DNA of 64,000 bases from Escherichia coli (GTDB lineage Bacteria; Pseudomonadota; Gammaproteobacteria; Enterobacterales; Enterobacteriaceae), in assembly GCF_030384885.1 (NCBI RefSeq), contig NZ_CP128613.1. One strand, given 5' to 3'. The notes under the pieces are model-generated. The model did not search any database. It was not told the origin of the DNA and saw only the letters and a list, made by a program, of their open reading frames with translations. Below, piece after piece: positions 40,176 to 47,382 of the stretch (position 1 is its first letter; every line of letters starts with the position of its first letter). Position numbers and translations under genes: made by a program.

Positions 40176-40190
40176 TTGCAGGAGCTGCCT

Positions 40191-42671
40191 ATGTTGAGAA
40201 TGACCCCACTTGCATCAGCAATCGTAGCGTTATTGCTCGGCATTGAAGCTTATGCAGCTGAAGAAACCTTTGATACCCATTTTATGATAGGTGGAATGAA
40301 AGACCAGCAGGTTGCAAATATTCGTCTTGATGATAATCAACCCTTGCCGGGGCAGTATGACATCGATATTTATGTCAATAAGCAATGGCGCGGGAAATAT
40401 GAGATTATTGTTAAAGACAACCCGCAAGAAACATGTTTATCCAGGGAAATTATCAAGCGGTTAGGCATTAATACCGATAACTTTGCCAGCGGTAAGCAAT
40501 GTTTAACATTTGAGCAACTTGTTCACGGTGGGAGCTATACCTGGGATATCGGAGTTTTTCGTCTCGATTTCAGTGTACCGCAGGCGTGGGTGGAAGAACT
40601 GGAAAGTGGCTATGTTCCACCGGAAAACTGGGAGCGGGGTATTAATGCGTTTTATACCTCTTATTATGTGAGTCAGTATTACAGCGACTATAAAGCGTCG
40701 GGTAATAGCAAGAGTACATATGTACGTTTTAACAGCGGGTTAAATTTACTGGGGTGGCAACTGCATTCTGATGCCAGTTTCAGTAAAACAAATAGCAATC
40801 CAGGGGTGTGGAAAAGCAATACCCTGTATCTGGAACGTGGATTTGCCCAACTTCTCGGCACGCTTCGCGTGGGTGATATGTACACATCAAGCGATATTTT
40901 TGATTCTGTTCGCTTCAGCGGTGTGCGGTTGTTTCGTGATATGCAGATGTTGCCTAACTCGAAACAAAATTTTACTCCACGGGTGCAGGGGATTGCTCAG
41001 AGTAACGCGCTGGTAACTATTGAACAGAACGGTTTTGTGGTTTATCAGAAAGAGGTTCCTCCTGGCCCGTTTGCGATTACAGATTTGCAGTTGGCCGGTG
41101 GTGGAGCAGATCTTGATGTCAGCGTGAAAGAGGCGGACGGTTCGGTAACCACCTATCTGGTGCCTTATGCAGCAGTGCCGAATATGCTGCAACCCGGCGT
41201 GTCGAAATATGATTTTGCGGCAGGTCGTAGCCATATTGAAGGGGCGAGCAAACAAAGTGATTTTGTTCAGGCGGGTTATCAGTATGGTTTTAATAACTTA
41301 TTGACGCTGTATGGCGGATCGATGGTCGCGAATAATTATTACGCGTTCACTTTGGGGACTGGCTGGAATACACGCATTGGTGCCATTTCCGTCGATGCCA
41401 CGAAGTCGCATAGTAAACAAGACAACGGCGATGTGTTTGACGGGCAAAGTTATCAAATTGCCTACAACAAATTTGTGAGCCAAACGTCGACGCGTTTTGG
41501 TCTGGCGGCCTGGCGTTATTCGTCGCGTGATTACCGGACATTTAACGATCACGTTTGGGCAAACAATAAAGATAATTATCGCCGTGATGAAAACGATATC
41601 TATGACATTGCCGATTATTACCAGAACGATTTTGGCCGTAAAAATAGCTTTTCTGCCAATATGAGCCAGTCATTGCCAGAAGGCTGGGGTTCTGTGTCCT
41701 TAAGTACGTTATGGCGAGATTACTGGGGGCGTAGCGGCAGCAGTAAGGATTATCAGTTGAGTTATTCCAACAACCTGCGACGGATAAGCTATACCCTCGC
41801 AGCAAGCCAGGCTTATGACGAGAATCATCATGAAGAGAAACGTTTTAATATTTTTATATCGATTCCCTTTGATTGGGGTGATGACGTTACGACGCCTCGT
41901 CGGCAAATATATATGTCTAACTCAACGACATTTGATGATCAGGGTTTTGCCTCAAATAATACGGGATTATCGGGAACCGTTGGAAGCCGGGATCAATTTA
42001 ACTATGGGGTCAACCTGAGTCATCAGCATCAGGGAAATGAAACGACAGCTGGAGCGAATTTAACCTGGAACGCGCCGGTGGCAACGGTGAATGGCAGTTA
42101 TAGTCAGTCGAGTACTTATCGACAGGCTGGAGCCAGTCTTTCAGGGGGCATTGTCGCCTGGTCGGGTGGCGTTAATCTGGCGAACCGTCTTTCCGAAACG
42201 TTTGCTGTGATGAATGCGCCAGGAATTAAAGATGCTTATGTCAATGGGCAAAAATATCGCACAACAAACCGTAATGGAGTGGTGGTATACGACGGAATGA
42301 CACCTTATCGGGAAAATCACCTGATGCTGGATGTGTCGCAAAGCGATAGCGAAGCAGAATTACGTGGCAACCGGAACATTGCCGCCCCTTTTCGCGGCGC
42401 GGTTGTACTGGTTAATTTTGATACCGATCAGCGCAAGCCCTGGTTTATAAAAGCGTTAAGAGCGGATGGGCAACCATTAACGTTTGGTTATGAAGTCAAT
42501 GATATCCACGGTCACAATATTGGTGTTGTCGGTCAGGGAAGCCAGTTATTTATTCGCACTAATGATGTACCGCCATCGGTTAATGTGGCAATTGATAAAC
42601 AACAAGGGCTCTCATGCACAATCACCTTCGGTAAAGAGATTGATGAAAATAGGAACTATATTTGCCAGTAA
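40191..42671 (+). CDS. yehB: Fimbrial outer membrane usher
   Basis: ORF track starts at a TTG (40176); ATG at 40191 with an upstream AGGAG gives 826 aa beginning MLRMTPLASAIVALLLG. Confidence 0.9.
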   Translation: MLRMTPLASAIVALLLGIEAYAAEETFDTHFMIGGMKDQQVANIRLDDNQPLPGQYDIDIYVNKQWRGKYEIIVKDNPQETCLSREIIKRLGINTDNFASGKQCLTFEQLVHGGSYTWDIGVFRLDFSVPQAWVEELESGYVPPENWERGINAFYTSYYVSQYYSDYKASGNSKSTYVRFNSGLNLLGWQLHSDASFSKTNSNPGVWKSNTLYLERGFAQLLGTLRVGDMYTSSDIFDSVRFSGVRLFRDMQMLPNSKQNFTPRVQGIAQSNALVTIEQNGFVVYQKEVPPGPFAITDLQLAGGGADLDVSVKEADGSVTTYLVPYAAVPNMLQPGVSKYDFAAGRSHIEGASKQSDFVQAGYQYGFNNLLTLYGGSMVANNYYAFTLGTGWNTRIGAISVDATKSHSKQDNGDVFDGQSYQIAYNKFVSQTSTRFGLAAWRYSSRDYRTFNDHVWANNKDNYRRDENDIYDIADYYQNDFGRKNSFSANMSQSLPEGWGSVSLSTLWRDYWGRSGSSKDYQLSYSNNLRRISYTLAASQAYDENHHEEKRFNIFISIPFDWGDDVTTPRRQIYMSNSTTFDDQGFASNNTGLSGTVGSRDQFNYGVNLSHQHQGNETTAGANLTWNAPVATVNGSYSQSSTYRQAGASLSGGIVAWSGGVNLANRLSETFAVMNAPGIKDAYVNGQKYRTTNRNGVVVYDGMTPYRENHLMLDVSQSDSEAELRGNRNIAAPFRGAVVLVNFDTDQRKPWFIKALRADGQPLTFGYEVNDIHGHNIGVVGQGSQLFIRTNDVPPSVNVAIDKQQGLSCTITFGKEIDENRNYICQ

Positions 42672-42686
42672 TAATCGGGTGGCTCT

Positions 42687-43721
42687 ATGAAAATTCGCAT
42701 AATGTTATTTATATTAATTATGATGGTAATGCCTGTGAGTTATGCAGCATGTTATGGAGAGTTATCTGCCCAGCATAATTTTGCTGTTCAGGGGGATTTT
42801 GCACTGACTCAAACACAAACGGCAACATATGAGCATAATTTTAATGATTCGTCATGCGTGAGTACAAATACTATCACCCCTATGAGCCCGTCGGATATTA
42901 TTGTTGGACTTTATAACGATACCATTAAATTAAATTTACATTTTGAATGGACCAATAAAAACAACATCACGTTGTCAAATAATCAGACCAGTTTCACCAA
43001 TGGTTATTCGGTAACGGTGACACCTGCGGCCAGTAATGCAAAAGTGAATGTTTCTGCGGGGGGCGGCGGTTCAGTGATGATTAATGGTGTTGCGACATTA
43101 TCCAGTGCTTCATCATCGACACGCGGGAGTGCTGCAGTACAATTTTTACTGTGTTTATTCGGTGGCAAGTCATGGGATGCATGTGTAAATAGCTACAGAA
43201 ATGCATTGGCACAAAATGCAGGTGTCTATTCCTTTAATCTGACATTGTCATACAACCCGATAACCACAACCTGCAAACCGGACGATTTATTAATTACTTT
43301 AGAGAGTATTCCCGTTTCACAATTACCAGCTACAGGTAACAAAGCAACAATAAATAGTAACAAAGGGGATATTGTTCTGCGTTGTAAAAACTTATTAGGT
43401 CAACAAAATCAAACATCACGGAAAATGCAGGTGTATTTATCAAGTTCTGACTTGTTAACCAACAGCAACACAATACTGAAAGGTGCGGAAGATAATGGCG
43501 TAGGATTTATTCTTGAAAGTAATGGTTCTCCAGTCACACTTTTAAATATCACTAACAGCAGTAAAGAATACACAAATTTAAAAGAAATTGCGGCAAAGTC
43601 AAAACTTACAGATACAACGGTTTCAATTCCGATAACTGCCAGTTACTACGTCTACGATACAAATAAAATTAAATCTGGCGCACTGGAGGCAACCGCATTA
43701 ATCAACGTGAAATACGACTAA
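42687..43721 (+). CDS. yehA: Fimbrial adhesin-like protein
   Basis: 344 aa with signal peptide; last gene of the yehDCBA operon. Confidence 0.85.
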   Translation: MKIRIMLFILIMMVMPVSYAACYGELSAQHNFAVQGDFALTQTQTATYEHNFNDSSCVSTNTITPMSPSDIIVGLYNDTIKLNLHFEWTNKNNITLSNNQTSFTNGYSVTVTPAASNAKVNVSAGGGGSVMINGVATLSSASSSTRGSAAVQFLLCLFGGKSWDACVNSYRNALAQNAGVYSFNLTLSYNPITTTCKPDDLLITLESIPVSQLPATGNKATINSNKGDIVLRCKNLLGQQNQTSRKMQVYLSSSDLLTNSNTILKGAEDNGVGFILESNGSPVTLLNITNSSKEYTNLKEIAAKSKLTDTTVSIPITASYYVYDTNKIKSGALEATALINVKYD

Positions 43722-43802: not shown

Positions 43803-44141
43803 TTAGCGATGATAAAAAATCTCACCATCGTAGGCTTTAATGATTTTACCGTCGGTGTCGCTGATCAACACGTACGCGCCACCCATATAGGTCCAGTGCG
43901 TCCCGGCATCAGGCGCGGGCAGGTTACGTAACTGCCACTGCTTAATGTTGTACTCATCGGTGCGGTACATCTCTGGGACGGTATCGCCTGGTTTGAAATG
44001 CTTAAAGTCAGCAATGAAACTGCTTAACTCATACTTAGAAATTCCCGAGGTATTGGTCGAACCCGCGGTGGCTGGTGCGGCCCAGGCGGCACTGGTAACC
44101 AGCAAAAGCACACCCAGCAACATCTTATTTTTAATGGTCAT
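43803..44141 (-). CDS. rcnB: Periplasmic nickel/cobalt homeostasis protein RcnB (YohN)
   Basis: ORF 43803-44321(-); start at 44141 gives 112 aa beginning MTIKNKMLLGVLLLVTSAAWA. Confidence 0.88.
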   Translation of the reverse strand: MTIKNKMLLGVLLLVTSAAWAAPATAGSTNTSGISKYELSSFIADFKHFKPGDTVPEMYRTDEYNIKQWQLRNLPAPDAGTHWTYMGGAYVLISDTDGKIIKAYDGEIFYHR

Positions 44142-44359: not shown

Positions 44360-45181
44360 TTATCGTATTATGCCCATAAAGCCATGTACGCCCATATACA
44401 CACCAACTAAGCCAATCAACAGACTGGAAAAATAGGGGGCGCGTTTAGCGAGAGTGTTAAATCCGCTCCAGCGTTTTGCGACCTGCTGAACGCTGATTGC
44501 TGCGCCAATGCCTACGGTGACCAGCGTTAACGCAAGGCCAATGCTGAAACTGACGACCAGTGTTGCGCCCAGTGTCAGGGCTTTCAACTGAATGCAAATC
44601 AACAGCACGGTAATTGCTGCCGGGCAGGGGATAAGGCCACCGGTTAAGCCAAATAACAAAATTTGCCAGTTGGTGACCTCTCTACCATCGAAGCGTCGTT
44701 TAATGTCATTGGCATGGGCTCGTGCATGAGCATCCTGATACTCCCCATGTTCGTGATGGTGATGATGTCCATGGTCGTGGTGATCTTCGTGATCGTGATG
44801 ATACTCATGATCATGCCCGTGCATATTCTCCAGCCAGTTGCGTTCGCCGCGCCAGGTACGCCAGAACATCCAGAACGCGGTGCCAATAATGATCACCGCG
44901 GAAATCAACTGGAGCCACGGTTCTGCAGATTGAGCAGTAAAACGTTTGCTGATCACCATCCCGCCAAAGGCAATCAACCAGACCACCGCGGTATGCGAAA
45001 TGGTTGCTGCCAGTCCGAGCATCACCGCCTGTTTAATGGTGCCTTTGATGGCGATGATAAACGCCGCCATCATCGTTTTTGAGTGCCCTGGTTCCAGGCC
45101 ATGAAGCGCACCAAGTAAGATGGCGCTGGGGATGAAGAACCAGGCATTTCCTTGCTGAAGAAGAGTGGTAAATTCGGTCAT
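44360..45181 (-). CDS. rcnA: Nickel/cobalt efflux protein RcnA
   Basis: 273 aa membrane protein with His-rich loop HGHDHEYHHDHEDHHDHGHHHHHEHGEY. Confidence 0.93.
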   Translation of the reverse strand: MTEFTTLLQQGNAWFFIPSAILLGALHGLEPGHSKTMMAAFIIAIKGTIKQAVMLGLAATISHTAVVWLIAFGGMVISKRFTAQSAEPWLQLISAVIIIGTAFWMFWRTWRGERNWLENMHGHDHEYHHDHEDHHDHGHHHHHEHGEYQDAHARAHANDIKRRFDGREVTNWQILLFGLTGGLIPCPAAITVLLICIQLKALTLGATLVVSFSIGLALTLVTVGIGAAISVQQVAKRWSGFNTLAKRAPYFSSLLIGLVGVYMGVHGFMGIIR

Positions 45182-45218: not shown

Positions 45219-45253
45219 TACTCCCCCCCAGTACCTGATACTACCCCCCAGTA
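45219..45253. promoter_or_regulatory. Two tandem RcnR operator sites in the rcnA-rcnR divergent promoter region
   Basis: tactcccccccagta (45219-45233) and tactaccccccagta (45239-45253), i.e. TACT-C(6-7)-AGTA inverted repeats. Confidence 0.8.
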
Positions 45254-45301: not shown

Positions 45302-45574
45302 ATGTCTCATACAATCCGTGATAAACAGAAACTGAAAGCGCGTGCCAGTAAGATTCAGGGTCAGGTCGTGGCGCTCAAGAAAATGCTCGACGAGCCGCAC
45401 GAATGCGCAGCTGTTCTACAACAGATTGCTGCTATCCGTGGCGCGGTAAACGGCCTGATGCGCGAAGTGATTAAGGGGCATCTGACGGAACACATCGTTC
45501 ACCAGGGGGATGAGCTAAAACGTGAAGAAGATCTGGATGTCGTTCTGAAGGTGTTGGATTCATATATCAAATAA
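45302..45574 (+). CDS. rcnR: Ni/Co-responsive repressor RcnR (CsoR/RcnR family)
   Basis: 90 aa beginning [22 protein letters not shown]. Confidence 0.93.
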
Positions 45575-45667
45575 TTTCACAACGTTATTGTAATCCCGCC
45601 GTTTTTCCTCGTTTACAACGTGTGCGCGGGACATTACCATCCATCTCTGCGATTCATCATCGCAACC

Positions 45668-45790
45668 AAACGACTCGGGGTGCCCTTCTGCGTGAAGGCT
45701 GAGAAATACCCGTATCACCTGATCTGGATAATGCCAGCGTAGGGAAGTCACAGACCACCAGGTCATTGCTTCTTCACGTTATGGCAGGAG
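45668..45790 (+). ncRNA. TPP (thi-box) riboswitch in the thiM leader
   Basis: cgactcggggtgcccttctgcgtgaaggctgagaaatacccgtatcacctgatctggataatgccagcgtagggaagtc matches the thiM TPP aptamer; expression platform runs to the SD of thiM. Confidence 0.9.
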
Positions 45791-45796
45791 CAAACT

Positions 45797-46585
45797 ATGC
45801 AAGTCGACCTGCTGAGTTCCGCGCAATCAGCGCACGCGTTAAACCTCTTTTACCAACACTCTCCTCTTGTGCATTGCATGACCAATGATGTGGTGCAAAC
45901 CTTTACTGCCAATACTTTACTGGTGCTCGGTGCATCGCCAGCGATGGTTATCGAAGCAGAAGAGGCCAGTCAGTTTGCGGCTATCGCCAGTGCCTTGCTA
46001 ATTAACGTCGGCACGCTGACGCAGCCACGCGCACAGGCAATGCGTGCTGCCGTTGAACAGGCAACACACTCCCAAACGCCCTGGACGCTTGATCCGGTCG
46101 CGGTTGGCGCACTCGATTATCGTCGCCATTTTTGTCATGAACTTTTATCTTTTAAACCGGCAGCGATACGTGGTAATGCTTCGGAAATCATGGCATTAGC
46201 TGGCGTTGCTAATGGTGGACGGGGAGTGGACACCACTGACGCCGCGGCTAACGCGATACCTGCTGCACAAACACTGGCACGGGAAACTGGCGCAATCGTC
46301 GTGGTCACTGGCGAGGTGGATTATATTACCGATGGTCGTCGCACCGTTGGCATTCACGGCGGCGATCCGTTAATGACCAAAGTGGTAGGAACTGGCTGTG
46401 CATTATCGGCGGTTGTCGCTGCCTGTTGTGCGTTACCAGGTGATACGCTGGAAAATGTCGCATCTGCCTGTCACTGGATGAAACAAGCCGGAGAACGCGC
46501 CGTCGCCAGAAGTGAAGGGCCTGGCAGTTTTGTTCCCCATTTTCTTGATGCGCTCTGGCAATTGACGCAGGAGGTGCAGGCATGA
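45797..46585 (+). CDS. thiM: Hydroxyethylthiazole kinase
   Basis: 262 aa; start [32 protein letters not shown]. Confidence 0.93.
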
Positions 46586-47382
46586 AACGAATTAACGCTC
46601 TGACGATTGCCGGTACTGATCCGAGCGGTGGCGCAGGGATTCAGGCCGATCTTAAAACCTTCTCGGCACTTGGCGCTTATGGTTGCTCAGTTATTACTGC
46701 ACTGGTGGCGCAAAATACCCGTGGCGTACAGTCGGTGTATCGCATTGAGCCTGATTTTGTCGCCGCCCAGCTCGATTCGGTGTTCACTGATGTGCGAATC
46801 GACACCACTAAAATCGGTATGTTGGCGGAAACCGATATTGTTGAAGCGGTGGCAGAACGGTTGCAACGTTATCAGATCCAAAACGTGGTACTCGACACCG
46901 TTATGCTGGCAAAAAGCGGCGACCCTCTGCTTTCACCTTCGGCGGTTGCCACGCTGCGCAGTCGATTATTGCCACAGGTTTCATTAATAACGCCAAACTT
47001 GCCCGAAGCTGCCGCCTTGCTCGACGCGCCACACGCGCGCAACGAACAGGAAATGCTGGAACAAGGGCGATCGCTGTTGGCGATGGGTTGTGGCGCAGTG
47101 CTAATGAAAGGTGGTCATCTGGATGATGAGCAAAGCCCGGACTGGCTGTTTACCCGAGAGGGGGAACAACGGTTTACTGCACCGCGCATTATGACCAAAA
47201 ACACCCACGGCACTGGTTGTACGCTCTCTGCGGCGTTGGCTGCACTACGCCCGCGCCATACAAACTGGGCTGACACCGTACAGGAGGCAAAAAGCTGGCT
47301 TTCATCGGCGTTAGCCCAGGCCGACACGCTGGAAGTTGGCGACGGTATTGGTCCGGTTCACCACTTCCACGCCTGGTGGTGA
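46582..47382 (+). CDS. thiD: Hydroxymethylpyrimidine/phosphomethylpyrimidine kinase
   Basis: 266 aa; start overlaps thiM stop; [27 protein letters not shown]. Confidence 0.93.

Follow-up and report, generated by a model that had tools for sequence, protein, structure and literature searches.

Introduction

Length variation in a histidine-codon tract of rcnA, the gene for a nickel and cobalt efflux protein, has a history of about two decades as a typing marker in Escherichia coli and Salmonella, and rcnA repeat length is among the markers by which outbreaks caused by E. coli O157:H7 or Salmonella are traced. Judged from primer positions and published gene assignments, the tract is the locus scored as CVN007 in generic E. 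coli MLVA, as VNTR-19 or TR7 in O157:H7, and as STTR5 or SENTR5/SE-5 in Salmonella. For CVN007, which belongs to the scheme of Lindstedt et al. (2007), the primers (Table 1) and the formula that yields the allele number, (size - 314)/18, are given in PMC8143711; of the alleles 2, 3 and 4 that occur in MLVA profiles, most sequence types have 3 (PMC3407997). VNTR-19/TR7 (also O157-19) is a 6-bp repeat in the ORF Z3274, with 3-11 copies and 9 alleles (PMC3321953); its primers have been published (PMC8461963), and serial passage of strain EDL933 yielded a one-unit gain at TR7, a single event that translates to ~4.4e-5 per generation (PMC3777172). The Salmonella loci STTR5 and SENTR5/SE-5 are 6-bp VNTRs assigned to yohM, an older name of rcnA (PMC4487797, PMC2430564, PMC5183578), and STTR5, with a diversity index of ~0.79 and 19 alleles, ranks with the most diverse loci in a 5-locus scheme (PMC4487797). 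Moreover, in-frame insertions of histidine, aspartate and glutamate residues have been described in RcnA of Klebsiella pneumoniae isolates (PMC11445613).

With respect to the protein, resistance to nickel and cobalt through efflux has been attributed to RcnA of E. coli K-12 (Rodrigue et al., 2005, as cited in PMC11445613 and PMC5183578). Export and chelation have been left as alternative roles of the RcnA loop (PMC11247825), which in cable bacteria spans 100-123 aa with 33-53 histidines, compared to 67 aa and 17 histidines in E. coli (PMC11247825). The authors of one MLVA study speculate that extreme repeat lengths could harm YohM (PMC5183578). In transporters of the CDF family, the histidine-rich loops of human ZnT7 and Arabidopsis MTP1 have been shown to bind metal and to influence transport, positively or negatively (PMC10409766).

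Here we analyze the rcnA allele carried by a 64,000-nt stretch of E. coli DNA (hereafter, the window) and compare it with alleles from complete E. coli genomes. In-frame polymorphism confined to the tract, long known and exploited in typing, is confirmed. With a probability of roughly 0.9, we read the tract as a VNTR that encodes a flexible linker rich in histidine, aspartate and glutamate, that changes length in frame by slippage and recombination, that is tolerated by the protein, and whose mutability depends on repeat purity.

Results

The rcnA gene and its neighborhood

The window encodes on the minus strand, at 44360-45181, a protein of 273 aa that matches the NicO profile (PF03824) over residues 13-272 with E = 1.4e-69 and 235.1 bits against a cut-off of 27.7; other Pfam matches are to DsbD_2 and SfLAP. 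By this profile match and the adjacent rcnR and rcnB, the protein is RcnA of the NicO family of nickel/cobalt efflux proteins. The gene is flanked by the divergent rcnR, for a nickel/cobalt-responsive repressor (45302-45574, plus strand; PF02583, E = 3.5e-21), and on its 3' side by rcnB, for an accessory periplasmic protein (43803-44141, minus strand; PF11776, E = 7.7e-19), both also supported by RefSeq annotation; the same rcnR-rcnA-rcnB order, with rcnR divergent, is annotated at 10 RefSeq loci. A RefSeq rcnA match was found in 5,365 of 5,426 complete E. coli genomes. The window gene is 100% identical to that of strain 2013C-4282, and its product is ~97% identical to the common E. coli RcnA. 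Three open reading frames that overlap the histidine-codon tract in other frames or on the other strand (44644-44886, 44663-45082 and 44722-44889) were dismissed as low-complexity by-products devoid of support.

Two TACT-N-CCCCCC-AGTA boxes, at 45219-45233 and 45239-45253, are located between rcnR and rcnA; they resemble the G/C-tract operators bound by RcnR, and their homopolymer runs offer a further possible target of slippage. Beyond rcnR, a TPP riboswitch is found at 45666-45762 on the plus strand (RF00059, 71.5 bits against a gathering score of 54.3 in Rfam), directly followed on its 3' side by thiM (45797-46585) and then thiD (46582-47382). On the other side, beyond rcnB, large open reading frames at 40176-43721 (plus strand), including an 831-aa usher-like one and one of 344 aa, resemble a chaperone-usher fimbrial operon, and a nearby RefSeq match is yehA, a putative fimbrial-like adhesin gene.

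A histidine-dense tract in a predicted cytoplasmic loop

The minus-strand translation of 44700-44830 reads ENMHGHDHEYHHDHEDHHDHGHHHHHEHGEYQDAHARAHANDI. Within it, the tract proper comprises 26 codons at 44744-44821 (minus strand), HGHDHEYHHDHEDHHDHGHHHHHEHG, and it is here, or directly at the 3' edge, that the in-frame indels described below map, which makes this segment the variable VNTR core. The codons are CAT (8), CAC (7), GAT (3), GAC (1), GAA (2), GAG (1), TAT (1) and glycine codons (3), so that histidine accounts for 15 of the 26 residues. The next best stop-free 26-aa stretch in all six frames of the 64-kb window contains 7 histidines, and the histidine density of the tract is far above chance (binomial P ~3e-16).

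Hydropathy places the tract in a loop of 65 aa, residues 109-173 (44663-44857, minus strand), between the two membrane halves of RcnA; the loop contains 17 histidines in all. It also contains seven lysine or arginine residues compared to none in the short loops 1-12 and 82-87, which, by the positive-inside rule, argues for a cytoplasmic location, as does the topology predicted elsewhere for homologues of RcnA (PMC11247825). Codon counts, charge distribution and published topology thus all bear out the proposal, made in an earlier sequence-only reading of this DNA, that a run of CAT, CAC, GAT and GAC codons encodes the cytoplasmic loop.

Two other potential roles of the tract were considered. 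A structured RNA or DNA element was ruled out by comparison with Rfam, which produced no match overlapping the tract, and with shuffled sequences, relative to which the single-strand fold of the tract was no better (z = 0.59). Codons of the NAY type, read by queuosine-modified tRNAs, make up 20 of the 26 codons (12 NAT and 8 NAC). A link between queuosine and the tract is mentioned only in passing: the phenotype of a nickel-resistant E. coli tgt mutant has been ascribed to lower import through NikABCDE and not to rcnA (PMC9508795).

The window allele is a rare, interrupted form

At the nucleotide level, the window tract shows period 18 in TRF (3.1 copies, 73% matches, score 70), along with a weaker period of 9, and a repeat finder delineates three 33-nt copies spaced by 18 nt with 73-79% identity. 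Only 4 of the 4,918 tiles of the window contain as many repeated 6-mers. Nevertheless, exact repeats in the window allele do not exceed 8 nt, no 9-mer occurs twice, and when the peptide is recoded at random with synonymous codons, 98% of the recodings contain an exact repeat at least as long. CAT and CAC codons are interleaved in the tract. The repetitiveness of this copy therefore stems from its amino acid composition rather than from a clean tandem array, and the tract is a decayed array of 6-nt and 18-nt units made of CAY, GAY and GAR codons. The description of the tract as repetitive at the nucleotide level, advanced from the sequence alone, accordingly holds weakly for the window: the periodicity and the excess of 6-mers uphold it, but the short exact repeats do not.

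Codon-by-codon comparison of alleles shows that the window tract is the common 27-codon form minus one histidine codon. The loss falls in a CAY run that consists of four codons in the common alleles (e.g., CAT CAT CAC CAC) and of three in the window, TAT-CAT-CAC (44795-44803, minus strand), where the first codon has moreover changed from CAT to TAT, replacing histidine with tyrosine. A further change, GAG to GGG, is shared with K-12. The exact 78-nt window tract is rare: ~28 of 4,863 genomes have it, APEC O78 strains among them, and only 7 genomes match the entire window gene with an identity of 99% or more. There is no tandem GACCAC in the window tract, which lies outside the allele family scored as VNTR-19/TR7 in O157.

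The array being interrupted, and the length of the related K-12-type alleles being nearly constant, there is little reason to expect particular instability of the window copy; the 26-codon allele is a rare, interrupted and probably stable form.

Typing primers flank the tract

The CVN007 primers match the window exactly, the forward primer at 44901-44921 (minus strand; no such match is expected by chance) and the reverse primer at 44556-44576 (plus strand). The in silico amplicon, 44556-44921, measures 366 bp, and (366 - 314)/18 gives 2.9, or approximately allele 3. CVN014 was also considered as the rcnA locus and dropped; the matching primers are those of CVN007. The sites homologous to the VNTR-19 primers, at 44864-44899 (forward, minus strand) and 44621-44649 (reverse, plus strand), each contain 3 mismatches in the window allele; in the rcnA of an O157 strain (allele L006), the same primers flank the tract with 0 and 1 mismatches, respectively. 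Translation of the STTR5 primers gives WRGEQQ and ILLFGLT, which flank the loop in RcnA.

Length polymorphism is in frame and confined to the tract

We compared the gene with complete E. coli genomes by megablast, taking rows evenly down the ranking; all frequencies given here and below are estimates from such systematic samples of 60 rows per search. Among the 59 full-length rows, the matched length was 825 nt in 49, 849 nt in two and 852 nt in two, and lengths of 804, 822, 840 and 846 nt occurred once each, as did 823 and 826 nt, both in annotated frameshifted pseudogenes. In this sample, one common rcnA length thus accounts for ~83% of E. coli genomes, across all lineages.

Ten representatives were fetched and aligned with the window gene. 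The nine in-frame fetched alleles encode proteins of 267-283 aa, and in the alignment of 11 alleles all in-frame gap columns fall within the histidine tract or directly at its 3' edge, the site of an additional Asp-Asn-Glu in the O157-type alleles. Beyond the tract, the fetched proteins differ by 1-2 residues. A protein search extended this picture to 120 RcnA representatives from E. coli and Shigella, of which 116 had recognizable anchors: these contain 41 distinct tract peptides of 20-53 aa between flanks of essentially one length each, and the membrane segments are of fixed length across E. coli rcnA alleles. The sequence-only reading had proposed an alignment of rcnA alleles as the check on tract-confined indels, and a uniform length as the outcome that would speak against it; gene lengths range from 804 to 852 nt and tracts from 20 to 53 codons, and the variation lies where it was anticipated. 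The established use of the tract in typing went unrecognized in that reading.

Several of the variant tracts bear the signature of tandem duplication. One allele (L004) contains CATCATCACGATCACGAA twice in tandem, an exact 18-nt duplication; another (L002) contains (CACGAG)4; the O157-type alleles contain (GACCAC)4-6; and the longest alleles contain tandem duplications of blocks of 9, 12 and 18 residues. These two alleles, the O157-type and the long arrays exceed their own synonymous recodings in repetitiveness (p = 0.002-0.05).

Repeats are error-prone with some sequencing technologies, and the length differences could, in principle, reflect errors made in sequencing or assembling DNA of low complexity. 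We give this practically no credence: the differences are whole units, occur in complete genomes and recur across many independent assemblies, and two decades of PCR fragment sizing agree with them (PMC3321953, PMC4487797), so that the concordance of independent methods refutes an artefact.

Intragenic simple-sequence repeats drive frameshift switching in other bacteria. Were rcnA a contingency locus of this kind, its repeats would shift the gene in and out of frame and so turn it on and off, and a few genomes do carry rcnA pseudogenes, three of them in our samples (NZ_CP042878.1, NZ_AP024561.1 and NZ_CM142773.1; L007, L008 and L017). Their lesions are a G gained after AAA, a TA lost near the 3' end and a C lost from a CCC run, that is, at G/C or TA runs, all outside the tract; they could be genuine inactivations or sequencing errors. 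The units are of 6 or 18 nt, and the length of the tract is a multiple of 3 in every sampled allele. Since all the changes involve whole codons, what is observed is length variation and not on/off switching, and phase variation is refuted by the tract lengths together with the location of the lesions; the chance that it operates here is vanishingly small.

Perfect arrays vary within a clone, interrupted arrays hardly at all

A query consisting of the O157 tract with 60-nt flanks, searched with a strict E-value, retrieved 289 genomes, nearly all of them O157:H7 or close relatives, with matched lengths of 222, 228, 234, 240, 246, 252 and 258 nt, always in steps of 6 nt. Five fetched variants and the reference differ, over the tract and its near flanks, in nothing but the number of tandem GACCAC units, of which they have 5, 6, 7, 8, 9 and 11. 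In contrast, the K-12 tract as the query retrieved 4,872 genomes and a single length in 56 of the 59 full-length sampled rows, the exceptions being one gain of 15 nt, one gain of 24 nt and one pseudogene with a 1-nt deletion outside the tract. Given at least seven lengths in O157:H7 compared to near constancy among K-12-like alleles, mutability tracks the purity of the repeat, and it appears to depend on both purity and copy number. The sequence-only expectation that such tracts are prone to expansion and contraction in frame therefore holds for the locus, where the allele comparison, the O157 arrays and the passage experiment all support it, but not for the window copy, which is interrupted and probably stable.

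Recombination contributes to allele diversity

The rcnA allele of an APEC O78 strain (L018) is identical to that of the window over nt 1-479 of the gene and then differs at 22 sites up to the gene end. A recombination breakpoint just 3' of the tract, at approximately 44702-44743 (nt 439-480 of the gene), can be discerned. Among the other alleles, the similarities of the 5' and 3' halves are discordant, and in the O157-type family the 3' half is ~7% divergent, whereas the 5' half is nearly identical to that of other alleles. The mosaic formed by the window and APEC O78 alleles and the discordant halves indicate that recombination adds to allele diversity beside slippage. Some of the differences between allele classes are better explained by recombination than by slippage.

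Taken to the extreme, recombination could account for all of the variation: old, stable allele families would have moved between lineages, with the tract no more mutable than other DNA. The mosaic alleles with breakpoints at or beside the tract, the divergent 3' half of the O157-type family next to a nearly identical 5' half and the high conservation of the K-12-type length all fit such a scheme. However, nearly clonal O157 alleles differ, over the tract and near flanks, solely in hexamer copy number, an insertion has arisen de novo in the laboratory (PMC3777172), and exact tandem duplications of at least 18 nt are the product of slippage or unequal exchange and not of imported divergence. For the O157 and Salmonella forms, recombination as the only process is already contradicted, and we regard it as very improbable overall.

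Predicted disorder and family-wide variation of the loop

An AlphaFold2 model of RcnA (44363-45181), built from 45 diverse homologues, has a mean pLDDT of 82 with confidently predicted membrane helices. Its only long coil, residues 121-150 with pLDDT ~50, is exactly the tract, so that indels of whole codons would be tolerated as changes in a predicted disordered segment. A sequence search of the PDB with RcnA retrieved only histidine-rich or His-tag artefacts, and a Foldseek search of the PDB with the model produced no significant match (best E = 0.66); to judge by these searches, the PDB appears to contain no solved structure of the NicO transporter fold.

Across 76 full-length representatives of the family, collected by an exhaustive search, the loop varies from 32 to 268 aa (median 69.5) and contains 2-58 histidines, with at least 8 in 89% of the representatives; dipeptide repeats of the forms (HD)n, (HG)n, (HP)n and (HS)n are common. 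Eight RcnA homologues (P0121, P0123, P0125, P0129, P0130, P0133, P0137 and P0149), whose membrane parts are in some cases as much as 74% identical to those of E. coli RcnA, contain a conserved insert of ~100 residues within the histidine loop, with the motifs DTGHG...ELSVFE...IPEPHxF. These motifs suggest a folded domain that replaces the simple linker.

Discussion

The observations presented here are most readily accommodated by a scheme in which the tract forms the core of a flexible linker, located in the cytoplasm, between the two transmembrane halves of RcnA, the Ni(II)/Co(II) exporter. The most likely source of changes in tract length is slippage of the replication machinery from one tandem unit to another, with an additional contribution from the exchange of alleles through recombination. 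The reading frame is always kept because the units consist of whole codons, and the protein would gain or lose only histidine, aspartate and glutamate residues within a tolerant, disordered segment. Under this scheme, perfect hexamer arrays would vary inside one clone and interrupted arrays would stay nearly fixed. We infer slippage as the mechanism, direct observation being confined to O157 alleles, and also infer that most of the length variation is neutral or weakly constrained.

Whether loop length has consequences for metal handling is a separate question, on which the sequence-only reading had ventured that such tracts may tune metal binding or sensing. By analogy with other transporters and given its composition, the RcnA loop would be expected to bind metal, and tuning of metal handling by loop length is conceivable on the same grounds; no effect of tract length on nickel or cobalt handling emerges from the present evidence, and we found no experiments that dissect the RcnA loop in the literature searched. 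In a strong adaptive version of this idea, tract length is itself under selection: the number of ligands would set the capture of nickel and cobalt or the activation of the transporter, and lineages would shift their efflux capacity or set-point by changing repeats. Lengths are indeed bounded, with 3-11 copies of VNTR-19 (PMC3321953) and mid-range STTR5 alleles favored (PMC5183578); the loop is strongly enlarged in the nickel-dependent cable bacteria (PMC11247825); the ZnT7 loop recruits zinc and deletion of the AtMTP1 loop stimulates transport (PMC10409766); and a histidine-rich loop is retained in 89% of the family representatives. However, length-dependent mutation bias can also bound a range, a single length prevails in ~83% of E. 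coli genomes across lineages, and lengths vary widely in perfect DNA repeats, the pattern predicted by a mutational account; nor did we come across a phenotype reported for any variant of rcnA length. On balance, we consider selection on length unlikely. Slightly less likely still is a variant in which both length and repeat purity are selected, such that O157:H7 and Salmonella keep a fast, in-frame adjustment of the efflux set-point, whereas most E. coli have fixed a stable, interrupted 27-codon version. Were purity selected, the low repetitiveness of the window allele could reflect selection against slippage and not simple decay. Furthermore, if the number of histidine, aspartate and glutamate residues in the loop alters nickel and cobalt handling, rcnA would be a natural, quantitative tuning device based on a coding repeat, with thousands of typed isolates on record.

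A tolerated, in-frame linker VNTR, the reading that we favor, can be set against the described systems, starting with the most distant. The loops of CDF/ZnT transporters are, like the RcnA loop, cytosolic, disordered, histidine-rich linkers of variable length between transmembrane helices; given that they belong to an unrelated family and fold, RcnA being a NicO protein with no Pfam match to CDF, the parallel is one of functional analogy only. RcnA of cable bacteria belongs to the same family and has the same loop, and its wide range of lengths and histidine counts fits the 32-268 aa of our survey; there, however, the difference lies between phyla and is read as an adaptation to nickel use, not as strain-level repeat variation (PMC11247825).

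The typing loci are closer. STTR5 of S. Typhimurium and SENTR5/SE-5 of S. Enteritidis reside in the orthologous gene and, on the evidence of primer translations and of the gene assignments in the respective papers, in the same inter-domain loop, but in another genus and as a perfect hexamer of many copies. VNTR-19/TR7 is located in the same gene and loop as the window tract, and its range of 5-11 copies in genomes fits the published 3-11; its O157 alleles are distinguished by perfect (GACCAC)n, the additional Asp-Asn-Glu and the ~7% divergent 3' half, none of which the window allele shares. For CVN007, the window amplicon is 3 nt shorter than the usual allele 3 (369 bp, K-12), a difference that bins of 18 bp cannot resolve. 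CVN007 is nonetheless the closest counterpart among these systems, being the same locus as the window tract, with primers that flank it and an 18-bp period that fits the one detected by TRF.
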